A stretch of DNA of 63,560 nucleotides, filler included, from Reticulomyxa filosa (lineage: Eukaryota > Protista > Foraminifera): the NCBI GenBank assembly GCA_000512085.1. It is 18 parts of 18 records of this genome, joined end to end, with 100 filler letters (N's around TTAATTAATTAA, not from the genome) between each part and the next. Parts side by side here need not be neighbours in the genome. Positions count along the whole stretch, not along the records: positions 29,303 to 33,670 come from ASPP01026763.1; 17 more parts are not named here. One strand, 5' to 3'. The notes beneath the pieces are model-generated. The model did no database searches. It saw only the letters and a program-made list of their open reading frames with translations, and was not told the DNA's origin. A program made the translations under genes and the position numbers. This document shows, one piece after another, positions 3,539-63,560 of this stretch. Positions within the stretch are counted from its first letter, which is position 1. Each line of letters starts with the position of its first letter.

Positions 3539-4635
3539 TCAAAGTTTTGCAAAGAGTGGGAAAAGTTCTTGTATAACAGTCTTGACTTGAGGGAAGATAT
3601 TGGCATATCCCAGCCACCACTCAGGACCGAGAAAGGTGAGATACGCGACCACGATTTGAGAGTGTTTCTTTACGTAGTCGATATATTCTTTGGTATACCC
3701 ATGTTTGGTTTGTAGCAGTGAATAGACCTCTTCCATCTCTTTGAACTCTTCATCGTCGGAAAACGTAATCCTACTGAAGTCGAACACTTTGTGAGACGAC
3801 AGAGTGCCTGAACACACGTAGGCCAGGTTGTGCGAACTTGGGTTCGCAGTCGTGGCAAACGCCATCCGATATCCCAAATAGCACGCGCCCATTGCCTGTA
3901 GCAGGCTCATCAATTGTCCTAACTTTTTGACGGTCGTACCGGGTACTACTGTTACCACGTCATAAATCCTGACTTCACCATAATTAATTTCCCTTTTTTT
4001 TTAAAAAAACAAAACAACTAAATTAGTACATCACAATTCAGCATCCACAGTACACCCCCCCCTTTCGTAAAAAAAATTTATACATCAAAAAAAATAATGA
4101 CGTATACACTATAAAAACCAAGAATATCCATTCCAAAAAAAAAAAAAAGGTTTTTTTTTTTTAACTTTAATGGTTTAAAATCTTCGTCGAAAAGCATTTT
4201 GCAAAGCTGTGGAAAATTTTGAATCGCTTTTGCGTTGATTTTTTTTCGCATCCTTTGGAAGGTTGATTCTGATGACTTGTCAGTTGGGGCCAACATATCG
4301 TCGCTGGTTGTAACTGCAACTACTCGGTTTGTCTTTCGTTCGAGGGCCACCCACGAAGTACCCCTTTTTATTGCAAAGCTTACTTCACGCTTAAAGCGCG
4401 GAAGGCTGTCTTCCACAGATGCATTGAAACACATATGATTGATCACATTGCCATACATACTAAATTGGTAGCAAAGCAAGGTCAACACTTGTTGGTAATG
4501 ACATTCTTTTAGAACGTCAAAACGAAGGTTATCGAATTTGTGCGTTTTTAGCAAGTCATGCCACGCTGGAGACTTGTCTAACTTCTGCACTAATTCTTGG
4601 AATTGTTTCACATGCTTCTCGTGAAGTTCTTCCAT
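3539..4635 (-). CDS. GNAT-family N-acetyltransferase, two exons (4635-4166, 3992-3539; 307 aa)
   Basis: A GT-AG intron (4165-3993) joins the two ORFs in frame (924 nt total). Motif A-like VTVVPGTTVKKLGQL and motif B-like LGYRMAFATTANPSSHNL are present. Confidence 0.65.
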
Positions 4636-6125
4636 TGCTACTTTCTTTCACGTTGAAAAAAACAGTAGACACAAAGACACAAAAGGACAGAAGGAAAACC
4701 AAAAAAGCCTTGTTTTCTTTTTAAAAACGAGTTTGTTACTAGATCACAAGGTGACACACTGCACGAACTACAAAATCACTGTTTTCATAATCACATGAAA
4801 ACAAGATCCAATTTTTACAACATGCATCCAATCGATACTTTCTTGTGTGCAAAAATAGACTTGCATTTAAAAAATATATGATCGATCCAAAAATAATACC
4901 AATTTTATCATTCACGTAGCTATATGCTTTTACCTTTATTGGTAACTTACACCTAATGATTAGAAACAAAATATTTTGCCGAAAACATACAACAATGCCC
5001 AAGTGAGCAAATACATAATCTTTTATAAAAATTAATTTTGTTGAGGTCATCCATTAACTGCATGCTTCAGACTAGTGGCCAGTGAAACAAAAGAAACCTG
5101 ACAAGAAGTATTTCTGATTTTTTTTAAAGTTTATTGAATTTATGATACGAATCATCTACATCAGGAAGTTTTCTTATATAAATACTTTTTTAGAGGAGAA
5201 AAATTTGTTTTATCAAGTTAAAGTATTTTGCACTAAAAGGGGAATTTTTCAAAGCAAACACACAAAAAAGAATCTATTATTTATGAAATAGATGTTTTAT
5301 GTCTATTAACTGAATAGTATTCATAAGATTAAAACAATACTGTAAGAATTGAAGGAAAACAAGTAAAAAATGATATATTTCCATTATACTGCAAATAAAG
5401 CGCAACTAGAAAATTTAAAACTATTTTCTCAAGATAACCCAATAAATTCATTGACAAAAAATGTTGCCACAAGGGAAAGAACCTGCTGTAGAGGGCTAAG
5501 AGGCAATCTTAAATAAGAGTTGGATTTAAAAGTAAAGAAGAGATTTTTTTTAATTTGAGAGAATAAAACACTTGAGTCACTTATGACTCGTTATCACGTA
5601 GTTTCGTACTACACTGCTTTTTCCCTTTCCATAAATGCGCTTAATATTATTACGGTTAAATAAAAAAGCAGTTTACAACCAAATTAAAAGACAATGAAAA
5701 AAAAACGGAGAGAAAAACGAAAGTAATTAAGTTTACGAGGAAGGGGTTTTAAGATTCACTTGAGCTTGTCAACAATTTGCCCTACAATATGGTTAACAAA
5801 ATGTTACCCACTACTAAGGATATTTGCATAATTTGAGGGTCAAAGATATTTCTCAAATAAACATAACTAAAGCGAAAATATTTAAAAGCAACAGGTCAAC
5901 AAAGAAAAAATATACGTGATAGATGTTGTTGATATGTTAAGCAAAAAATTTTTTTACATGCTCAAATAGTTTTAAAAAATACAAAATTACCATTTCTAGA
6001 ATTGTTTATTGTTTCACCTTTTTTTTTGTACATTATTCTAAATAAAAAATGAATATAATACATTTATGTAGATTGTTAAAGAAATGTATTCTTTTTCATT
6101 TTGTTACACTTTGATTATTATGCCA

Positions 6126-7463: not shown

Positions 7464-7777
7464 ATCATTATCATAATCATTGTCAAAATGTCATTTATTC
7501 TTCATCAGAAGACAAAACCATTTGTTTTTGGGATTCCAAACATAATAGACAATTACAGACATTCAATGGACACACTAATAAGGTTTATGGTATTGAATTT
7601 TCACCATTTAATGACAGTAGATATTTGTGTTCTGGATCATATGACAAAACAATTCGTTTATGGGATATTGAGACATCAAAATCATTACATGTTTTCAATG
7701 GACATGAAAATACTGTTTGGTGTGTTGATATTTCACCATTACAAAGTAATAATAACAAAGATGATAATAATAATAAT
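7464..7777 (+). pseudogene. Truncated member of the expanded WD40 family
   Basis: SSSEDKTICFWD...FNGHTNKVYGIEFSPFNDSRYLCSGSYDKTIRLWDIE...WCVDISPLQSNNN closely parallels 19305-20381 but breaks off after the Asn tract. Confidence 0.8.
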
Positions 7778-8159
7778 GTGTTTTTTAAAACACAATAAAT
7801 AAATCTTTAAGTAAAGATTTAATATTGATGACTTTCTCCCGTGAAATTTTGTTGATTTATTACAATTTTTGTGAATGTGAAATTTTGTTTTCTTTATCAA
7901 ATTTGCACAAGTAAAAAAAAATAACAAATATTCCACCACGTTGTTTCGCAAGCATTTTTGTTCTCTTCCAAGCCCTTTGTATCTTCCAAATATTTTCTTT
8001 CATTGATAAACCACTTTGGGTGCATACTTTCCAAACATAATTCACCAAAATGGTCTTAGTTACGCCAACAATTTTACAATTATCACTATCACATAATCGA
8101 AGTGTTTTACCAGTGATTGAGAATTTTAACAAAAGACGTGATGTTGAGCTGTTGGATCA

Positions 8160-17203: not shown

Positions 17204-18589
17204 TCATCCCCAAATACGAATTGAACCTTTGTCTGAGCCATAACATAAACCAATATCACAATCATTCAATTTTTGTTCATTATTCTTTCTTTTTATCTTC
17301 AGTGGTATCAATTTAAAATAATATATTCCTTTATCTTCCTCATTTCCTTTAATTATGTGTAATTCCCTGTCATTTGATCGAATATCCCAAAAACGAATTG
17401 TGTTATCATTTGATCCAGAACATATCACATTTGAACCAATGGCTTTACTATTATTCTTTATTACAAATGGTGAATATTCAACAGCATATATAGTATTTTT
17501 ATGTCCATTAAACGCTTGAATTTGTTTACCAGATCGAATATCCCACAAACGGACACTTTTGATCATATGATCCAGATAATATTGTATTTGCACCACCAAT
17601 CATTCCTAATTCATTTGATCCATATTTTACACTCCTAATTAAATTGTCATGTCCATTGAACATAATCAATTGTTTTGTTGTTTCGATATCCCATAAACGA
17701 ATAGTTTTATCATCTGATCCAGAACAAATTGTATATCCATTTCCACCAATCACACCAGTATTATTACCATTATTATTATTGCTTTGCAATGGTGAAAAAG
17801 CCACACACCAAACACCATATTTATGTCCATTGAAAACTTGTAATGAATTTAGTGTATCAACATCCCATAAACGTATCGTTTTGTCATATGATCCAGAACA
17901 CAAATATCTACCACCATTAAATGGTGAAAATTCAATACCATAAACAGCATCCTTGCATTGATTGAATATTTGTAATTGTTGATTATGTTTAATATCCCAA
18001 AAACGAATTGTTTTGTCAAATGATGAAGAACAAAATAACATTACGATGACTATTATAGTAATGATATGGTGAAAATTTCACACAATATACAGGACTTAAA
18101 TGTCCATTGAATGATTGAATTTGTTTGTTTTTGTCAACATCCCATACACGAACTGTTTTATCATTTGATCCAGAACAAATCAATTGATCATTATCGAATG
18201 TGATATAATCAATACTCCATACAGTATTAATATGTCCAGTGAATGTTTTAACTAATTTGGATAATGAACAAAATGTTTCGAGCAGTATGAAAGCGCTTGT
18301 CTGTGTTAAATAGTGATTATGAATAATATCAAATAAATATTTATCATTGAATAAAAAACAACAAAGAACATAACATAATTGACAATGAGTCTGTCAAAAT
18401 CATTGATCCATCCTAATTTGATACTTGACATTCGAATCCAATATTGAAGAATCATTTGGATTTCTTCTTTTTCTAACTGATTTAACCACAAACCACACTT
18501 AATAAATATAATTAATCAAAGGCGGATTGAATGAGACTTACCAATGCTGGCTTTGATAAAGGTTGTTTTTCATTGCTATGAGTGGCCAT
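17204..18589 (-). pseudogene. WD40-repeat gene (3 exons) with two +1 frameshifts (about 18033 and 17563); pseudogene or sequencing error
   Basis: Same exon structure as the 19013-20381 paralogue. The frame shifts at NVI/LFCSSS and at SYDQK/SVRLWD. Confidence 0.8.
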
Positions 18590-19012: not shown

Positions 19013-20381
19013 ATGATCAGTGTTAGTAATGAAAAACAAGCTTCAATGCAATTCTCATTGGTGAGCTTTCTTTTATTCTTTCAGAAAGCACGTGGCCTTT
19101 AAAGTTTTACTGTATTATTGTCTATTATTTGTGATTGGATCAGTCAGAAGAAGAAATTCAATTAATTATCCGGTATTGGATTCGAACTTCAAAAATTAAA
19201 TTAGGATGGATTAATGACTTCAATAAACTTGTTGTCAATTATGTTATGTTTTTTTTTTTTTAAGTCAATTAACATTAAAGTTTCCAAATGTTTATTGAAC
19301 ATAGACAACTGCAGTCTTCATTCTTGACACATTTTGTTTAACATCCAAATTACTCAAAACGTTCACTGGACACGCTAATTGTGTATACAGTATTGATCAT
19401 TCAACATTTGCCGAAGATCAATTAATGTGTTCTGGATCAGATGATAGAACAGTTCGTGTATGGAATGTAGAGACTACCAAACAAATTCAATCATTCAATG
19501 GACATTTAAGTCATATATATTGTGTGAGATTTTCACCATATCATTATCATCATTATCACTATAATATTATTTGTTCTTCATCATATGACAAAACCATTCG
19601 TTTTTGGGACATTAAACATAATCGACAATTACAAATATTCAATGGACATACAAATGCAGTTTTTGGTATTGAGGTATCACCATTTAATGGTGGTAAATAT
19701 TTGTGTTCTGGATCTGATGACAGTACTATTCGTTTATGGGATATTAAGACATCAAAATTATTACATATTTTTGATAGACATAGAGCTGGTGTTTGGTGCG
19801 TAGCTTTTTCACCATTGCAGAGTAATAACAATAAAAGTAATAAAAGTAATTGTATTGGTGGAAATGGATATACAATTTGTTCTGGATCATGGGATAAAAC
19901 AATTCGAATATGTGATATTGAAACAACTAAACAATTGATTGTATTTAAAGGACATGAACGCTTAATTAATAGTGTAAAATATGGATCAGATAGATTAGGA
20001 AATACAATATTATCTGGATCAAATGATAAAAGTGTTCGTTTGTGGGATATTCGATCTAATCAACAAATTCAAGTATTCAATGTACATACAAATGGTGTAA
20101 CATGTGTTGAGTATTCACCATTTGTAGTAAATAATATTGAAGTTGGTGATTATTCAAGTGTGATATGTTCTGGATCATTTGATAATACAATTCGTTTTTG
20201 GGATATTCGATCAAATAAGAAAGAATTATATGTGATCAAAGGAGATAAGGGAGAAGACAGTGGAATATTAGATCTTAAATTTTTTAATTTGAAAAAGAAA
20301 GAAAAAAGAAATACTGACTATAGTTTTGATATTAATTTGTACTATAGTTCAGAAAGGGGTCTTATTCGTGTTTGGGGATAA
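19013..20381 (+). CDS. WD40-repeat protein, intact: join(19013-19060, 19144-19242, 19305-20381)
   Basis: Two GT-AG introns give a continuous frame. About 7 GH...WD repeats, ending IRVWG*. Confidence 0.9.
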
Positions 20382-23354: not shown

Positions 23355-25610
23355 ATGGGGTGCTTTGGATCTCGTCCAGCAGATAACACCGAATCTAACA
23401 CAAGCGATAAATCAGCGGAAGTAAATGAGAAATATGTTTTTATAAGAACGTTAGGAAAAGGCGCGTCGTGCCGAGTGATGGAAGCGTCAGACAAAACGGA
23501 TGGCTCAGTATACGCAGTGAAAATAATGTCCAAATCGAGATCAGTCTGCAAATCTTTGTACGAGCATGAAATAAGCATTTTATCCAAATTAAAACATCCA
23601 AACATTGTGTCGTTGAGTCCTTTGTATTTCGTTTGTTTTACGTGAGAAGAGCAGAGGGGGGGAGAGGGATCATATACGTGTAAATACACAATTGGGTATG
23701 ATTGTATGTTGTATATCAGTTTGCATGAGAATTTTGAAGATGAAGAAAATTTTTATGTTGTCACCAACATGTGTGGAGGTGGTGAACTTTTCGGTTAAGA
23801 AAAAAAAGAAATTTCCTTTTTAAACATGTAGCTGTGTCCCCTTTTTGAATATTGATTCTTTTAAAAAAAAAAAACGGCACTGAGAGTCCGATTTTTCGAA
23901 TCCAATTCAAATGGAGGAAGAAGAGGGAGAACGATGAAAACAACAACAACAACAAAACAGACAGAATTGTGGACCCGAATTTTCAAATCACTGAGAAAAT
24001 CGCATCTAAATTGGTCCGTGACATGTTGAAGGCATTGCAATATTGTCATGGAAAAATATTGTACATAGAGATTTGAAGCCAGGTTTGTGTTTCCATTTGT
24101 ATGTACATATACATATATATTATTATTATTATATATGTATATATTTATATATACATGCATTTACCAAAAAAAAAAAAATAAATAAAGAAAAATGTATCCT
24201 TAACCATTGTGACATGAAATATCTTTTCACTTTTGTTTGGAACAAAACAGAAAACTTTGTGTTCGAAGGGAAAGAAGCAGATTCAAATATAGTGTTGATC
24301 GACTTTGGCTGTGCGAAGGAAATCCAAGATGACGAAGTGTATGACGACTTGGTCGGCACGGTGTATTACTTGGCACCGGAGCTAGCATCTCAAAAGAAAG
24401 ATGTGCCGACAACTGGCTTGGTGTTGAAATTCGCTGACGTGTGGAGTGTCGGAGTCATCACTTACGTCATGCTTACCGGTCGTCCACCTTTTGGAGGCAA
24501 ATCCAATCGTGAAATATTCCAAAGAATTGTCAAGTATATGTGCTTTTATTGTTGTTTGTTTGTTTGTTTACTAATGACCTTTCTTTGCTCTTCTTCTCCT
24601 CTCATATGAACAGAGGGGGACACTAGTAAGAGTCAAATTTGCCGTGAGACTATAAACTTAACTTTGCAAATCTGTTTTGTTTTGCTTTTTGTAGTGACCC
24701 GTTGCTGTTCCCAGATGATGTGAAATTGTCTGATGCCTTCAAAGACTTTGTCAGACAAACACTAGTGAAAGATCCAAGCAAACGTATCACCTTAGAGGCA
24801 GCCTTGCAACATCCATGGGTGTTAGGTAAAGATGCGTCCGAAACAGAATTGCAAAAAGACGTCATTCGCTATTTGCGACAATTCAATTATCAATCCAAAC
24901 TCAAGAAAGCTATTACAAGGTTTGTTTTTTTTTTTTTTTGCTATGTATATGTATACATTCGAAGTTGTTCCCACTGCAAAAAGGCCACGACATGCCACGG
25001 ATACAAGTAAAAGTTGTGTTGTGGGTTGGAATAATAGGTGCTTGGCTGCGAATATGAGCAAGGAACCAGAGCAAGAAGTAAAGCGTCATTTCAATCGATT
25101 GGATAAGGATGGCGACGGGTTCTTGGAGCTGAATGAACTAGAACAGTTTTTATTTGATTTGGGATATGCACCCAGCATTGCCAAAGAAGAGGCGAAAAAA
25201 ATGCTCGCAAATGCTGATTTAAACAAAGACGGCACCATTGATTTCAATGAATTTAAGGCTGTATGGCAACGTAAATTATTGACGCAACACGAAGAGTACA
25301 TTCATCGTGTCTTCGCTGTTTTTGATGATAATGGAGATGGGTATATTGATGCCTCGGAATTGCAAGGAGTCCTTGGAGATGACTTTAAAAGCATTCTTGA
25401 AATGATTAGTGAAGTGGACGAAAATCACGACAACAAGATTAGGTACTGTCTTTTAGTTTGCTTGTTTGTTCGCTTATGCTCGACTATATTTTTGCTTTAT
25501 GGCGGTGTTATAGCTTTGAAGAGTTCAAAAAGGCCATGAAAGAAGACGTTTCAAAATTGGAAGATGGACTTGCTGGTGCTGGCAAGATCCGAGAACAAGA
25601 TTTGGCATAA
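23355..25610 (+). CDS. Calcium-dependent protein kinase (CDPK): exons 23355-23611, 23720-23793, 23961-24082, 24251-24533, 24695-24919, 25038-25442, 25514-25610
   Basis: MGCFGS N-terminus; GKGASCRV, AVK, GGELFD, HRDLKPEN, DFG, APE; junction LRQFNYQSKLKKA; four EF-hands (DKDGDG, DLNKDG, DDNGDG, DENHDN). One A is missing from the run at 24052-24056. Confidence 0.92.
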
Positions 25611-28320: not shown

Positions 28321-28999
28321 GTATGTATGCATTCAAGCTATGTTGTCATTTTATGCTTATCCCAATTTATGAATGATACTCCTTGACTCTCGCTATTTTG
28401 CGTTTGGATTTGGCTGGACGATACTTTGATTGATTACTTGACGAAAATCTTGACTGAAAGGGATTGTTCGTGACATTAAGGAAAAATTAGCTTATATTGC
28501 TGAACATTACCAGGTAGAATTGAGACAGCTGAAACTTCAAGTGACATTGGCACTTAACGATTCAGATATCATGAAGTGTGATTTAGACATCAGCCTAGAT
28601 TTGTACACAACACTATGTTGTCTGGAGGCAATGTTTACTAACATTTAATGTCCGTTTAACTAAGGAAATGACTAACTTAGATCATGCCAACATCAGTAAA
28701 AACTGTTGTTCATCATGAAAGAAAATACATTGTATGTATTGGAGGAAGTATTTTGATTAGCTTGTCTACCTTTCAGGAAATGTAGGTCTCAAAAAATGAT
28801 TATGACGAGTTGGCCTGATATTGTGCACATAAAACGCTTTTAAGAACAAAGTGTTTGCATTTTTTTTCTTTAGGCAAACCTTTTGGTTGTTGGTCAGCGT
28901 TGTTTGGCGTTTTAGCTGTTGTATGTGTAACTTGCAGCATGAATGCTGAAGTAGCTTGATCTTATTGTTTCAAGAAATTTTGTAACTTGTTTTGTTCTA

Positions 29000-29202
29000 C
29001 AGTAGGTTGCAAAGAAAACTGAACGCCTAAAACATATCTTATGATGATAATTGATTTTATCAATGAAAAATCAACATTTATACCTAATTTTTTTTAAAAA
29101 AAATATCTACAAGTCTTGTAGTTATTAAAAAGTCAATATCATATTTAAAAACTCCAATACTTGTAGATATTTTTAAAAAAAAATTAGGTATAAATGTTGA
29201 TT
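29000..29202. mobile_element. Palindromic Tc1-type MITE, right end cut by the contig edge
   Basis: Starts TA-CAGTAG at 28998. Arms 29069-29125 and 29148-29202 are near-perfect reverse complements. The left ~115 bp resemble the Tc1 terminus at 9160-9277. Confidence 0.75.
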
Positions 29203-29302
29203 NNNNNNNNNNNNNNNNNNNNNNNNNNNNNNNNNNNNNNNNNNNNTTAATTAATTAANNNNNNNNNNNNNNNNNNNNNNNNNNNNNNNNNNNNNNNNNN
29301 NN

Positions 29303-31807
29303 GGCCATCCATTTTTTGTTGGTGAATGTGGACATCCAATGGAACAAGTGGTTTGTACGGCAGATGGTTGTGGCGAAGTTGTCGGCACTTTGTCTGATCA
29401 TCATACAAAGAACACAGGACTTCAACAGAAAGACATCCTTCAAGGGTACACATAAAACAACTTTTTAAATTTTTTTTAAAATAAAAATATGTTCACTGTT
29501 TTTTAAATAGATATCAATTGGATGGTTCACCGGAAGAACATTTGACACCGGATGAGTTTTGGAAATATGAAGCAGACGTAGAGGTCCGCCATGTAGAAAG
29601 AGTTGTATGCACATTATTACGCTTTTTGATACATTTGCCATTGCTTTTGCGAGACTTTGGCACTGCTGAGGGGTTGTGTCCATCTCCAAAAATTGCTAAA
29701 CAAAGGCAGCAAACAAGAAGTGACAGACTTTTTATGGAAGCAGGCGACAGGCAATTTTAATTTATTATGTCAAGTTACCAGACTCAATGAAGAACAATTG
29801 GCCATTGCATTACACCTCTTCTTAGAAAATTTTGGAAATGGTTCAATGACACTTATCCAGATGGTTTTTCCAACGTGGAAGACGCAAAAGAAATTTATGC
29901 ACTTGAAATGAACATGAATAACGAGTATGGATCATTTTTTGGCGACAAAAAAAAATGGAATGAAATTCGTGATGCAAGTAAAAGCAAAGTTGAAAGTGAA
30001 AAGGAAAAAGAGATTCGATCTGAAGTTCAAGAAAAAAAGGTGTTTGATGTATCCTACGCGCCAAATTTATTTTTAACAACCAGATTCATGACTTGGGAAG
30101 ACTTGGCTCAAAGTTTGAACAATAGTATAGCACTGAAAAACAAGCATCCATTGTTATATCTGGTGTTGTCCTCGAACGAGTTGCTTTGGAGTGTGAAATA
30201 TTTGACTTGGATTGGACAATGGCTAAAACGTGTCTATGTACACTTTTGTCTTAAAATTTCCTCTTCTGAAGGATCCAGTAAGATGATTGAAGAGGTATTA
30301 AACTCCCTTGGAGACGATAAGAAGAAATCCAGTCAAATATGGTCACATTTCAAAATGTGTTGGAACAATTTTGCAAAAAAACCTATTCGAAATGGATGTC
30401 AACAGTTGGTAGTCCCGGAATTAGGTGATGAAAATACAACCACAATGGAATGCAGTCTGGCACGTGAAACGGGAATGGGATTGTTTGTTGTCAAAATTGT
30501 TCAAATTTTACAAGATGCCAATAACAAATTCTTGCAAGATTGTCATGATCAATTGGATAAAAAGGATTTGGAGATTCCAGAAGGAAAAGACAATGAAGAT
30601 AACAAAGAAATTGAGGAAATGAGTGATGATGGAACAAGAAGTGATGAGGGGTTGAGTGATAATGGAACAAGTAGTGATGAGGGACTGAGTGATAATGGGA
30701 CAAGCAGTGATGAGGAAAATAATTATGAAGAAAAGAAAGAAGAAGAAGAAGAAAAACCAAAGGAGGAAGATAATTTGAACGAAAAAGATTTCCAAAAATT
30801 TCAATTTGCAAAAATTTGGAATGTAAATAATAAATCTCTGTTTGACATAAACGAACAAGATATCGTCTGTGCTGACAAAGAACAAATCAATGCCATAATC
30901 AAACACTGGAGTGTCCCCGTTTTGCAATATGGACAGATTGATGCTTGTGATGATCACATTTCGGATTTGCAATCCATCGAAAACGAAATTTTGAATCGTT
31001 TCATTAATGGCAAACGAATTATTCAAATTAATACTCGCTTATTTCAATATTCTAATGAATACAGCATACCCAATTGCTTGGATATTATGAAAAATAATAA
31101 TCCAAAACTAATTGAAAATCATTTAGATGAACAACTTTGGGACGCTTTTGTTGCATCAATTAAGTCTCCATCGGATAGGACACGAGCACTTCAATTGTTG
31201 AGCGAAACAATAGTTTTTTTGCACCAAAGTGCAAAAAGCATCAAACCGTTACGTATTTTTTTTATATGTGTTTTGTTTAAAAAGTAAAAATATCAAAATA
31301 TTGGATCTTTTGGGTAATAATAGTACTGACAAATTGACCGTTTTAATGGAGAATTTATCATTTGAACAATCGCATTATATGTTATTTGAAGTTCGTTCAA
31401 GTGACAGAAGTGACCTTTGTTTGTGTGCAAAGCATATTGCTCCACTGTGGTATCAGTTGGATGAATGGGTAAAGACAGAAACTACCAATGACGACACTAT
31501 TGACAAACATGTGCTACCAGCGTACCAGTTACCATTAACTGATGACCTGAAAACGCAACTTGATTTGTTTGTTCAAAAGACTCCAATAGCAATTGTGAAA
31601 AGGATACTGAATAACTGGCGAGAAGTTGCTCGCAAGGAAGGTCAAAGGCAAGAGATTGAAAAAAAGTTATTTGCAGATTGGCTAGACAATATATATTTTT
31701 ATGATAATGAAATTGTAGAATTTCCAAAGGCCTTGCAATGGAAATATTGTTCAAGTGCGTATGCTTATGTATTTGAAATTGTACACAAAAAAACAAATAT
31801 AAATTAA
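29303..31807 (+). CDS. RNF213-like E3 ubiquitin ligase, C-terminal part (RZ finger + CTD), spliced, with frameshifts near 29670 and 29860
   Basis: GHPFFVGECGHPMEQVVCTADGCGEVVG is an RZ-type zinc finger. It is followed by GYQLDGSP...RHVERVVCTLLRFLIHLPLLL and DFLWKQ...LAIALHLFL, collinear with the RNF213 post-RZ region. Confidence 0.8.
30621..30714 (+). repeat. 33-bp in-frame tandem repeat, about 3 copies (SD[D/N]GT[R/S]SDEGL)
   Basis: gagtgat(g/a)atgg(a/g)acaag.agtgatgagg repeated within an acidic loop. Confidence 0.9.
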
Positions 31808-35212: not shown

Positions 35213-36003
35213 CGGCAATCACCGCGCAGCCCAGCGGGCCGCGCTTTACCACCAGTACCGCTTGCGGCGCCAGGCGGCGTACCACATTCAGGCAGTCGAT
35301 CAGCGCCGGCTTGCCGCCGGCAATCAGGAATTCTTCTTCGGTACCCACAATCAGGTCGAACAGCGGCAGTACCGATTGCAAGTGCGCGCTGACAGCGTCG
35401 TCAGCAATGAAACGCTGCTCCCCGTTGCCGCGACCGGTCAGACCCCACAGCACCGGGCGGTAGTCGATATCGAGCACGGTGCGCACATTGTGCTGGCGGG
35501 CATACGCCCAGCGCCTTGCGGCTGGCGGCATTCACGGTAGCGGTAGACAGGTGGGTGCCGGTAATCAGCAGCGCCTTGCTGCTGGCGATGAAGGCTTCGT
35601 CGATGTCGTCTTCGCACAGCGCCATGTCGGCGCAGTTTTCGCGGTAGAACAGCAGTGGGAAGGTGTCACGATCCTTGATACCCAGCAATACCAAGCCGGT
35701 CAGCCGCGACGGGTCGGTTTTCACCTGCGAGGTGTCGCAACCTTCGTTCTGCAGCTCTTGCACCAGATAGCGCCCCATCTGCTCGTCGCCAACACGCGAC
35801 AGCATGGACGACTTCAGGCCCAGACGGGCAGTACCGAATGCGATATTGGCCGACGAGCCACCCAGATACTTGGCAAAACTACTGGCGTCTTCAAGACGCG
35901 AGCCCAGCTGGCGAGCGTACAAATCCACGGCCAAGCGGCCCAGGCAGATCACGTCCAGCGGACGATCTGAAGCAAATTGAGTCTGGTTTTGCATGGTTTC
36001 CAT
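35213..36003 (-). CDS. iolC: 5-dehydro-2-deoxygluconokinase (PfkB family), bacterial, 3'-truncated, one homopolymer frameshift at about 35508
   Basis: LDVICLGRLAVDLY..QLGSRLED.SSFAKYLGGSSANIAFGTARLGLKS, FPLLFYRENCADMAL, DIDYRPVLWGL, LIVGTEEEF. GC-rich and intronless. Confidence 0.93.
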
Positions 36004-36136
36004 TCCATTGGTTGCCGATGCCCGAGGTCTTGTGCTCAGCCGCCGATCGGACTCGGCGCAGCGGGCTACCGTGATGAAACTAGATTACTGCGCACTTGCC
36101 ATGATTGCAAATTTTTTTTCGTATATTTGTTGTATC

Positions 36137-36150
36137 GGAAATTTATTTCT
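36137..36150. promoter_or_regulatory. Candidate IolR operator GGAAATTTATTTCT in the divergent iolC/iolR intergenic region
   Basis: Near-palindrome GAAAT-tt-ATTTC, one mismatch from the GGAA-N6-TTCC type site described for proteobacterial RpiR-family IolR. Confidence 0.5.
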
Positions 36151-36234
36151 GCTAAATTTTTTTTCATTTCTGCAACAGCAGTCGTAACATAGCGGCATCA
36201 CATCGCCCCGGAGGCCCGGAAATTGAGCAATAAC

Positions 36235-36335
36235 ATGACCGCAGACCAGCTCATGAAGCGTATTTCAGAAGAGTACGAAGGCCTGAGCAAGCAACTTAAG
36301 ATCATCGCCAAATACATCGAGGATCATCGCCAGAC
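36235..36335 (+). CDS. MurR/RpiR-family transcriptional regulator (IolR-like), N-terminus only
   Basis: MTADQLMKRISEEYEGLSKQLKIIAKYIEDH is typical of the RpiR HTH start, and the gene is divergent from iolC. Confidence 0.8.
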
Positions 36336-58277: not shown

Positions 58278-61200
58278 GTGTCGGTGCACGCTGACCTTGT
58301 GGCAGAACTTCGTGAAGGAATGCAAAATGATAACCCTCCCAATGAAGAAAATAGAAAATACAAAAAAGAAACAAAGATATTGCGCAAATTATTTGGCGAT
58401 TTGGTTCAAAAGGAAGAATTACAACAAAAAATGGAACATTATAATGGAGACATTGAATCGGTCATTAAAGAGATCATACAACAATCGATTGAAAATGAGG
58501 TATAAGACAGCATCATAACTTTTATTCCTGTCCTCAAACGTATTGTTTGATTTGTCTTTTTTTTTTTTTTAAAAGAATAAATTAGAATCTGAAACCAAGA
58601 TCGACGGACTGGAAGATGTAGACCAGGTACTTAATAATTACTTTACTCTTTACGTATATAATTTGATTTTTTATTGATAACAGAAACAAAAAGATGCAGA
58701 AAATGAAAGCACATTGCGTCGAATCAATAGCAGTGGGCTACAAAAAGAAATGGAAAAAGCTGAAATTGGAGAAACAAGACCGGGGATCAACCTACAAGGA
58801 TATTGCACAAACGAGACTTGTCTTGCATCAAAAGGAAAGCTACCGGTGTGGATTAATGTGGGATTTGGTAATATTTCATTTGTTCCAAACGCAAACCTCT
58901 TTTGTTGTCCGGATTGCAAAAAATTAACAGTGACCTCAATTGCAAAGGCAATGTTCTACAATTCAGAGCACTCGATTTGTTCAAGTAGTGATTTAATACC
59001 AGTAAAAGCTAACAACTATCAGTGTTCATATCCAATTCAATCTGGACTTTCGTATGAATTGCAAGCGCAAAATATCAGACAGCATGCAGCAAGTATTGAG
59101 GATTTAAGAGAAAGAAGCGAACATGCAATGAACAGCAAGGAAATAATCGATTTGGTGACCGAATTACAGAAATACGAGATTACTGTTGTGAAACCACCCA
59201 GTTTGAAAGGGAACGAAAGATTATTAGAAAAAATTCAAGCGGATTACGGCGGAGATTTTAATCAAGCATTCGATATTGGTAGATTTACTATTCTATGTGA
59301 TAATCCTATCAAATTGCAAACAGCAGTGGCAGTGCTGAAAAAAGCAGAACAATTTCATTTGATTGTATCAGAAGATAAAGATTTTTTTGAAAAACAATCG
59401 AAAACACATCATCGATTTCATAATATCAAACTGTATGTTCCGAAGCATGATGTATATATTGAAATGCAAGCGACATTGAAACATTTTACAACACTAGAAG
59501 GATACACTGTGATTGAAAATCCGAAATTGAGTCATTTATTTTATGAACAGATCAGAGCATGGAAGCCAAACAACTCAACAAAAGAAGAAGAAGAGCTGAA
59601 ACAAGCCAGTGATGAAATGCTAACCAAAATTAACGATATAATTTGTGAGTGGATTTCTGAAAAAGAAATTAAAAAGATCTCCAATCGCTATAAACCATAT
59701 TCAGAAATTGGAATATTCAAACCGCCACAATTAAGGGAAATTACAGAAGAACAAATTAATATTGGTAATGATGTCCCATTGAAATTAACAAAATTTGTGT
59801 ATGATCAACTTTGTACATTCAATCCAATACAAATGAAAGCAAAGGCAATATATATGGTTTTATTTGATTATTTCAAAAAACATATTATGGGTGTGGCAAA
59901 TCCAGTAAGTTGTGAAGAGGTTGCATTGATATTACAAGAAGCAAGAGAGAAAGAATTGGAAGAAGATTCAGCAATAGCACAAGCGCTTGAGACATACATT
60001 CCATTGCATGCAAATAATTATCCATACATCGGTAATGATAATAATGACAAAACTACTGGCTATGACTGTTATCAACGTGTCATTGAATTTTTGGAAGAAG
60101 AAAAAAAGAGTGATCAACAAAGAGAAGTAATGATATTACAAGGAAAATCAGGATCAGGAAAAAGTTTATTTTGTCGTCATTTAGAAGAAACTTTATGGAA
60201 GACATATGATAGCAATCCGAAAAAACCACTTCCTGTTTATATTTCGTTACCAAAATGCTATAGTGGATTGAATGAACAGCAGCTAATTTCTCAAGCTTTG
60301 CAAATGAAACAAATTAATAAAGAGATGATTGATGCTATCCGTGAGAAAACTTCATTTGTATTTCTTTTGGATGGATTCGATGAAATATTTGACATTTACG
60401 CCAATAACAATCCTAATGAAAGATCTGTATATAACCGTTTTAATTTTGGACAATGGAATGCAAAAGTAATAGTCACTTGTCGAAGCAATGTATTAAATGA
60501 CGAAGATATTAAACAAGTTTTAATTGGTTCAAACAGCGCAACAACATCAATGATGTATTTATGGCCTTTTTCAAAGGACCAAATGCATGGCTACATTGAC
60601 AAGTTTGTGCAATTAAACCAAAAAAATAAAATGAATGGAAATTTCGATTGGACAACACGACAATGTGAAGAAACATTGAAAAATTATCCCAATTTGAACA
60701 AGATGATGGAAGAACCTTTTTTACTTCAGTTGATATTGACAGTATTACCGGTATTGACAAAACAACATTCTGTAGGAACTAAAATATCAAAAGCACAAGT
60801 ATATGAAGCATTTAACGAACAATGGCTTGATCTTCATATCCAAAATATTTCCAGTAAATTGGCAGAATTAAGGATTCAAACAAACCTAAAAAAAATCAAA
60901 ACAAGATTTGAAAGATACTGTCTTGACTTGGGATTTGAGATGTTTATTCAGGGTAGCCATATTGCAACAGAAAATGATAGCACGCAATATGACAATGCAG
61001 AAACTACTATCGCAGATCCGAAGATAGAGTGGAAGAATAAAATAGACGTGAACGAAGAGATTGAAGAAAAGACCAATAAAACTGCTACTTCAACTTCAAA
61101 AACAAAAAGTATTTGGAAATATTTTGGTGGCGAAAGTATTTCCAAATATACATCGAAAGGAAGTGAAAAAAATAAGTCTCAAAATGTAGATGAAAATGTG

Positions 61201-63560
61201 GAAATAAAAACAAGGAATGAAATGGATACTCCAAATTTAGAAACGCAAGATGTTTGGGAAAAATATTTTAATGGCGATAGTATTGCTAAATATGTGTTGA
61301 GAAGAATTGGCAACAACAAATATCAATTTTTACATAAATCGTGTCAAGAATATTACGCAGCAGCAAAAATTATAAGTGATATCATTTCATGGAAACCTAA
61401 TGCAAATATTGGGTTCGATGATCGACAATTTCAACAGCGCTTCGAAAGACGTATTCCAAGTTTACTTATTAATTGTAAATTGCTAAATGAAGAGCCGGGA
61501 ATAGTTAAATTTATTGCTGAGCGAATTCATGACACAAAACCAGTATTTACGAATTTGAAATCACGCTTGTTTCGCATAATTGACGCATCAAAAACAAACG
61601 AAAAAGTTTGTATTGCTGCAGCAAATGCAATTACCATACTCAATTCCGCGAGCGTGAACATGCATTATCAAAACTGGAGCAATATCAAAATTCCTTATGC
61701 AATCTTAGACTACTCATTCCTTGAAGGAACAAACTTTAAAAATGCCAATTTGGATCATGTTAGTTTTCACCAAACGTATTTAAACAATGCAAATTTTACA
61801 AAAGCATCAATGAATGGCGTTCATTTTGGAGAATATGCTTATTTAGAAGGACATTCCGGTGATGTGATTAGAGTTCAATATTTTCCTGATGGCTCTAAAG
61901 TTGTTTCCTGTTCAAATGATCGCACAATTCGGGTATGGGATGTATCATCAGGAAAACAACTTCAAGTATTAAAAGGGAATTCGAATTCGATTACTGATGC
62001 ACAATTTTCTCCAAACGATTTTAAAACTACGGCCTATTCCGAGAACAATATAATTCAAATATGGGACACATTGTCAGGGAAACAACTGCAAATGATGAAA
62101 GGACATTCCGGTCTCATAACTGGGCTTCGATTTTCACCAGATGGTTCCAAAATTGTGTCATATTCGGAAGATAAATCAATACGAATATGGGATGTATCAT
62201 CAGGGGAACAGATTCAATTATGTGAAGGCCACTCAGGCACAGTGACCGGAGCGCTGTTTTCACACGATGGTTCCAAGATTGTTTCACGTTCATATGACAA
62301 AACAGTTCGAGTATGGGATGTAATGTCAGGAAATCAACTTCAAATAATACAAGGTCACGCAAATTCAGCCACAATTGTACAATTTTCACCAGATGGTTCA
62401 AAAATTGTGACATCTTCAAATGATCAAACAATTCGAATCTGGAATACATTATCAGGAGAACATATACAATCACTTGAAGGGCATTCAGGCACAGTGACCG
62501 GTGTGCAATTCTCATCAGACAGTTTAAAACTTATTTCACGCTCACATGATAAAACGATTCGAGTATGGGATATATTGTCAAAACTTCAACTTCAAAAAAT
62601 GGAAGGGCATTCTGGTAGTATAAATGATGTGCAATTTTCCCCTGATGAATCCAAAATTGTGTCGTGCTCAAATGATCAAACAATTCGAATATGGAACGTA
62701 TCATCAGGAAAACAGTTGCAATCATTAGAGGGGCATTTGGGTCCAGTAACTGCTGTACAATTTGCATCTGATGGCTCCAAAATTGTTTCATGTTCACGTG
62801 ATAAGTTAATCCGTATATGGGATGTGTTATCAGGAGAACACGTTCAATTGTTAGAAGGACATGCAAACTGGATTACCGGAGTGCAATTTTCTTCTGATGG
62901 TTTTAAAATTGCTTCATGCTCGCGTGATAGAACAATTCGAATATGGGAAACAGTATCAGGAAAACAACTCCAAGTATTAGAAGGACACTCAAATTGGGTA
63001 ACTGGTATGCACTTTTCACCAGATGGTTCAAAACTTGTAACATGTTCATCCGATAAAACAATTCGATTATGGGATGTATTGTCAGGAAAACAACTTTCGA
63101 AAATGATAGAATATTCATGTGAGATAAATAGTGTTCAATTTTCTACTGATGGTTTAAAGATTGTGTTATATTCATATGATGAATCAATTCGAATATGGGA
63201 CATATCATCAGGAAACGAGACTCAATTGTCAGAGGGACGTTCGAATTGGGCACTTTCTATGCGCTTTTCATTAGATGGTTCAAAAATTGTATCTTGTTTA
63301 GAGGACAAGTCAATCCGAATATTGGACGCATCATCAGGCCAACAGATCCAATTAATGGAAGGACATTCAAATTGGGTTACTGGTGTACAGTTTTCTCCTG
63401 ATGGTTCCAAAATTATCACGTGCTCAAATGATCAAATCATTCGAATATGGGATATATTATCAGGAAAACAGCTTCAACAAATGGAAGGGCACTCATCCGA
63501 AGTGAATGCTGCTCAATTTTCCCCTGATGGTTCTAAAATTGTTTCATGTTCAAATGATCA
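58278..63560 (+). CDS. NLR-like STAND protein: CUE-like / Zn-ribbon / RelA-SpoT-like / NACHT / pentapeptide / WD40; join(58278-58499, 58576-58626, 58684->63560)
   Basis: I found no stop in frame from 58684 to the window end. Walker A GKSGSGKS 60142-60165, Walker B FVFLLDGFDE 60355-60384, VTCRS, PFLL, FLHKSCQEYYAA, pentapeptide repeats at about 61665-61830, WD40 from 61843. Confidence 0.93.
61843..63560 (+). repeat. Array of at least 14 WD40 repeats with a strict 126-bp period
   Basis: The GH-equivalent codons fall at 61849 + 126n through 63487. Confidence 0.95.

Follow-up and report, generated by a model that had tools for sequence, protein, structure and literature searches.

In mouse RNF213, according to the accessible text of two studies, ATP binding activates the ligase, the C-terminal domain (CTD) docks the E2, and a cysteine of the RZ finger accepts ubiquitin, which a histidine helps to hand on (10.1101/2021.05.10.443411; PMC12075652). 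The same portions of these sources describe mouse W5097 as required for E2 docking, while the RING is reported as dispensable for both LPS ubiquitylation and auto-ubiquitylation (available text of PMC12075652). Beyond LPS, mammalian RNF213 acts on viruses, on the vacuoles of parasites and on Gram-positive bacteria, with lipid and vascular pathways involved as well, as far as the accessible parts of two accounts go (PMC11549300; PMC12075652). The second RZ protein, ZNFX1, is an SF1 helicase carrying a homologous RZ finger near its end, and the ZNFX1 finger alone has been traced to choanoflagellates in the part of the report at hand (10.1101/2025.10.14.682297). Research on RNF213 has dealt almost only with vertebrates. 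No paper on a protist RNF213 was found in the literature searched, outside which lie most subscription papers and all supplements, and the latter may hold wider alignments.

The preferred reading, with a probability of roughly 70%, takes the locus described here as the C-terminal 788 codons of a gene of RNF213/mysterin type that has many paralogs in what is likely a foraminiferan. On this reading the complete protein is predicted to act as an ATP-gated ligase that lacks a RING, and errors of assembly probably account for the two frame breaks. The locus shares with mammalian RNF213 (PDB 6TAX, 7OIK, 8S24, 9JWG) an RZ finger with a nucleophile cysteine, a collinear E3 and CTD fold and the same length from finger to stop, and the Walker A and B motifs of AAA3 and AAA4 are matched in its paralogs; identity over the structural alignment is about 15%. 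In contrast to the mammalian protein, the finger reads C-x4-C instead of C-x2-C with a histidine shifted by one, the window copy has an acidic insert and apparently does not keep W5097, the RING is absent in P0009, P0077 and P0079 (relatives are cited by such identifiers), and there are many paralogs and not one gene.

The window, that is, the whole stretch of DNA analysed (63,560 nucleotides), consists of 18 contigs placed end to end and separated by 17 identical artificial spacers of 100 nt (N44-TTAATTAATTAA-N44), so that neighbourhood across the spacers carries no meaning. One contig is a bacterial contaminant (57% GC) with an iolC-type kinase gene on the minus strand (35213-36335), which likewise means that contigs joined by spacers are not linked. 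The gene fragment, on the plus strand, begins with the first nucleotide of the contig at 29303-33670, directly behind the spacer at 29203..29302. Because this contig begins inside the RZ finger, the first zinc cysteine of the window copy, seen in paralogs P0001 and P0002, is missing, and owing to the artificial joins the 5′ part of the gene (the rest of the E3 module and the AAA+ ring) lies outside the window. Searches by tblastn with 11 long relatives, AAA-bearing ones included, gave window matches confined to 29303-31804 and found no AAA+ core of RNF213 type in the window. The previous contig closes with a 134-bp imperfect inverted repeat (86%, 29069-29202), either a hairpin element or an assembly artefact. 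Elsewhere the window holds a calcium-dependent kinase-like gene with a protein kinase domain and EF hands (24022-25539), an inverted pair of WD40-repeat genes that are 80% identical (17334-18492 and 19128-20254) and more WD40 fragments, among them 7464-7781, which point to an expanded WD40 family. An NLR-like frame on the plus strand (58681-63560, at least 1626 codons) combines NACHT, pentapeptide and many WD40 repeats, its N-terminal 480 residues having no Pfam match.

The finger is encoded in frame at 29303-29371 with the motif GHPFFVGECGHPMEQVVC-x4-C, and the first 49 codons match Pfam PF20173 (ZnF_RZ-type) at 35.1 bits (E 1e-8; cut-off 27). When the PDB was searched by sequence with the finger at E<=10, RNF213 accounted for 9/9 matches, weak ones throughout (E 0.055-0.072). 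Zinc ligands of the window copy are His 29306, Cys 29354 and Cys 29369, and the nucleophile Cys at 29327, within a GECG at 29321-29332, aligns to human RNF213 C4516, the spacing His-7-Cys-9-Cys being identical to human H4509/C4516/C4525. A candidate general-base histidine lies at 29399; the window copy has His at +10 and +11 after the last cysteine, compared with +9 in 7/8 of the remaining Cys-keeping paralogs and in human RNF213 (H4537). The zinc, nucleophile and general-base roles are assigned from the accessible text of two papers (PMC11549300; PMC12075652). The RZ finger of the original prediction is thus confirmed, with a score above the family cut-off and its nucleophile kept.

The gene model comprises three exons. 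Exon 1 (29303..29445), truncated at its 5′ end, encodes the finger, as placed by PF20173 and by alignment to human RNF213, and is followed by a GT-AG intron of 65 nt and 85% A+T (29446..29510), across which P0001 and P0004 are in frame. Exon 2 (29511..31247) covers the distal E3 module, corresponding to about 4560-4985 of human RNF213, and the start of the CTD at about 31070. It contains an acidic insertion (30550..30800), predicted to be disordered (pLDDT under 50), with a 33-bp tandem repeat in 3.2 copies (30612-30715); the spacer measures 102 aa here, compared with 36-86 aa in four paralogs. The second GT-AG intron (31248..31323, 76 nt) is the sole stop-free in-frame GT/AG pair among those tried, and the model spliced there can be aligned over its full length to P0003 and P0079. 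Exon 3 (31324..31807) encodes the remainder of the RNF213-type CTD and ends with TAA at 31805-31807. With an X placed at both frame breaks the model has 788 codons and no internal stop; its residues 1-783 align to P0003 at 39% (E 5e-174 in a 66-protein set) and residues 2-785 to P0079 at 38%. From the finger histidine to the end it counts 787 residues, compared with 663-772 in 12 relatives, the extra length being due to the acidic insert with its 33-bp repeat. The layout originally proposed was right in being collinear after the finger, but it overlooked both introns.

Downstream of the finger the main ORF by itself gives little: it matched no Pfam family, no useful PDB sequence, no relative among 7989 longer candidates and no metagenome locus, and the ESM Atlas gave unnamed matches only, all under 0.9, with none for exon 3. 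A profile built from 7 outside relatives and cut behind the finger scored the window at 119 bits, against a maximum of 5.0 in 300 shuffles (13/20 candidates had been left out, 12 with a finger unmatched by the pattern and one too short), and a profile of 3 database-labelled animal RNF213 proteins gave 38.6 bits against 3.7 for shuffles. Comparison of the last 230 aa of the family with 17 outside relatives by hhalign yielded 96.7% (E 4e-10); exon 3 by itself is weak at 4.7 bits and had no RNF213 match on separate search. The AlphaFold model of the main frame, made from 44 alignment rows, reached a pLDDT of 77.5 (a single-sequence model, at 36, was unusable), and among its 164 Foldseek matches all nine at E<=0.001 are RNF213, the next having E 2.1. 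The structural comparison by VIA gave Z 14.3 against 4.7 for the next match, with 225 residues aligned to human 4745-4979 at an rmsd of 3.5. Since the relatives were gathered with a profile that included the window sequence, and the same relatives stand inside the AlphaFold alignment, these tests are not fully independent. The predicted RNF213-like C-terminal region is nevertheless borne out by profile, Foldseek and VIA. Among the E2-docking residues of the CTD, mapped via pike RNF213b, D5101 is kept and Y5106 probably so, E5108 is not clearly kept and mouse W5097 aligns to a lysine, all in a loose stretch of the alignment; the invertebrate rows also have no tryptophan at W5097. Judging from this alignment, either the E2 surface may have diverged or the alignment may slip at W5097.

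ZNFX1 was rejected as the identity of the gene, with 787 codons beyond the finger histidine and an RNF213 fold there, extending over about 740 residues after the finger, in contrast to the near-terminal finger of the helicase. No helicase Pfam match occurred in the RZ-bearing paralogs scanned. In metagenome loci with the RZ motif the frame stops at most 115 codons past the finger in 117/117 among the matches listed, a control limited by introns and by short loci (37 of about 640 bp or less). The part behind the finger was matched by 0/125 motif loci among the matches listed (best E 0.12), and viral RZ-motif loci numbered 0 among the matches listed. An RNF213-type RZ-finger E3 is supported over an unrelated zinc ribbon or ZNFX1. 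Helicases of ZNFX1 type whose RZ finger is complete (L118:4901-10036, L121:3-5135, L122:4874-9292, L125:4874-10036) were noted in two bacterial metagenome-assembled genomes (Verrucomicrobiaceae and Dehalococcoidia), in addition to an RZ-like finger in L119; the four helicase loci are either eukaryotic contamination or true bacterial copies.

An AAA+/E3 core upstream of the finger, which the original prediction called for, is found in overlapping Reticulomyxa filosa paralogs but not within the window. Because the AAA ring of the window copy lies outside the window, its link to that core is by paralogy only. Taken together, the paralogs cover AAA3-6, the hinge, a RING-less E3, the RZ finger and the CTD. 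The fragments retrieved reach no further towards the N-terminus than AAA3, so that the stalk with its CBM20 domain lies beyond them. P0009, with an intact finger, begins within the final AAA units (44 bits against 3.9 in 100 shuffles); a PDB search with P0009 alone gave no RNF213 match, and a search with its AAA region returned 8 proteins, 8/8 from Reticulomyxa filosa. P0081 aligns to residues 2352-3196 of mouse RNF213 (E 1e-88), the two Walker A/B pairs included, and both Walker A motifs (AAA3, AAA4) are present in P0081, P0082 and P0083. The chain of overlaps runs from P0081 839-1580 on P0079 1-748 to P0079 1233-1966 on the window model at 38%, P0079 being a single chain from AAA5/6 through the C-terminus. 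Since on P0079 the match of P0081 stops next to where that of P0003 sets in (748/780), and a single contig of 10,501 bp carries the two, they are probably one gene split by annotation. By pattern and Pfam, no RING was found about 500 residues before the finger in P0009, P0077 and P0079, and the controls P0059 and P0032/P0074 (pike, Lingula) were positive. In the choanoflagellate RNF213-like protein P0064, residues 2338-2411 inside the AAA ring region match Cul7 (CPH-type).

The window copy groups with 13 paralogs in a single clade on a long branch (100% SH-aLRT in a quick tree of 32 rows), and the nearest RZ-bearing relatives with known names are all from Reticulomyxa filosa (13/13), in line with the rhizarian affinity suggested initially. 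Database entries of this species named 'RING finger protein' or 'RZ-type domain-containing protein' (ETO03608.1, ETN99486.1, ETO35632.1, RFI_32211) belong to the same clade (100% SH-aLRT for its 14 rows in the quick tree) and show 38-93% identity over the aligned parts, none being identical to the window copy; the RZ label is already in UniRef, and the 'RING' label stands without a RING match. An RZ finger and CTD without a Pfam RING, as here, are also found in Salpingoeca urceolata P0064, Soliformovum P0065 and Clastostelium P0035. Choanoflagellate and amoebozoan RNF213-like proteins have about 20-25% identity and sit on a separate long branch, and those inspected all keep the catalytic cysteine. 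Among 20 clade-like sequences inspected, some of which may represent allelic versions or pieces of a single gene, the finger is visible in 19. The nucleophile cysteine is kept in nine of these (window, P0001, P0003, P0004, P0005, P0007, P0009, P0077, P0079) and lost in ten (P0002, P0010, P0012, P0013, P0015, P0016, P0018, P0019, P0022, P0041), the species being assumed for P0016, P0018, P0019, P0022 and P0041. All ten Cys-less fingers retain the four zinc ligands, and the dead fingers may have arisen once or repeatedly, the support in the quick tree being 22. Matches of P0002 to Fis1 and integrin (E 0.016 and weaker) were dismissed as chance. Duplication in Reticulomyxa filosa is genome-wide according to the accessible text of one study (PMC11069148).

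If the full product works as mouse and human RNF213 do, ATP bound at AAA3/AAA4 would turn the ligase on, a ubiquitin-loaded E2 would dock at the CTD, transthiolation would move ubiquitin onto the RZ Cys at 29327, and the nearby His would aid its onward transfer to an acceptor amine or hydroxyl. The job of such a ligase would most likely be to tag membranes or engulfed microbes for disposal, in cell-autonomous defence or food-vacuole control. No sequence feature in the window points to LPS or any other substrate, and since mammalian RNF213 acts on many targets, the substrate cannot be read off the finger; LPS, an extrapolation, is a doubtful candidate.

Whether the window copy is functional depends on two breaks in exon 2, a G run with one extra base (29670..29673) and an A run one base short (29836..29838), which restores the first frame. 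Both breaks of the original prediction are real and the first lies where it was placed, at about 29670, but the second is at 29836-29838 and not at about 29860. They offset each other, and the uncorrected frame between them contains stops. Because the three close paralogs covering the region (P0001, P0002, P0004) are in frame across both, assembly error is favoured, and we take the breaks to be probably sequence or assembly errors. Were they genuine, the window copy would be a recently disabled pseudogene in a birth-and-death family, with the ligase work left to intact P0003/P0081 or P0079. We consider this unlikely, although several observations speak for it: there are two independent indels 170 nt apart, the close paralog P0002 is without the catalytic Cys, P0001 and P0002 leave frame further downstream, and an actin-like remnant close by (about 28450-28840, Pfam Actin E 6e-4), with stops and frame changes, is likely a true pseudogene. 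The unbroken 1626-codon NACHT-WD40 frame means that errors are not everywhere in the window. Homopolymer slippage is the commonest indel in nature too; as homopolymer runs of three or more hold 24% of the coding bases and the actin-like remnant is ridden with stops, a young pseudogene is possible. Against disablement, however, the 788 codons have no stop, at a divergence of about 14% from the closest copies; were some 55 changes on this branch (about half) neutral, a stop-free frame would have a chance of about 0.02. The end branch is also short (0.14), and both breaks sit in homopolymer runs. Moreover, the segment between the breaks is identical to in-frame P0004 at 55/55 residues, and the window's bacterial iolC gene shows the same type of error, a one-base G-run break near 35507. 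P0004 itself has its start at the codon with which the window contig opens, and agrees with P0001 at 93 of its first 100 residues, the next 55 being those identical to the window, a mosaic that reflects either gene conversion among paralogs or a chimeric assembly.

Two further readings concern the architecture of the product or its job. A short ligase standing alone, made up of RZ finger and CTD and lacking an AAA+ ring, or else the tail of a helicase like ZNFX1, would fit the absence of the upstream part from the window and the short gene models of the nearest database paralogs; yet these are incomplete models from contigs 0.4-4 kb in length, the longer paralogs form one chain from AAA5/6 to the C-terminus, and the metagenome frames described above end far closer to the finger, so that this reading appears highly improbable. 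An intact ligase with a housekeeping task unrelated to bacteria, concerned with lipid droplets or with the quality control of membranes or proteins within one large, multinucleate cell, agrees with the preferred reading on identity and differs in the job alone. The window offers no clue to a substrate, RNF213 is also implicated in angiogenesis and fatty-acid metabolism in the available part of PMC12075652, and the family expansion may follow the genome-wide duplication (accessible text of PMC11069148), which makes this alternative possible, if rather less than even. On the other hand, the family shows fast divergence and many paralogs. Rapid divergence together with many paralogs is typical of conflict genes. 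A role in defence is, in addition, described for both human RZ proteins in the portions available of two reports (PMC11549300; 10.1101/2025.10.14.682297).

Taken as an RNF213-type ligase, the window copy adds a modest gain, being a fragment whose relatives are already RZ-labelled in databases. A rhizarian family that lacks the RING and keeps the catalytic finger intact would place RZ-type ubiquitin transfer deep in the eukaryotes, and its natural variants (RING absent, altered E2 surface, dead fingers) may be useful for asking what directs RNF213 to non-protein targets. The aspect that merits following is the coexistence of active fingers with dead ones. It is a tentative and rather unlikely idea that the at least 19 RZ-bearing paralogs form an expanded RNF213 arsenal, in which active ligases and pseudo-ligases would co-assemble as sensor/executor coats on engulfed microbes; if true, this would amount to an RNF213-based immune repertoire within one cell.
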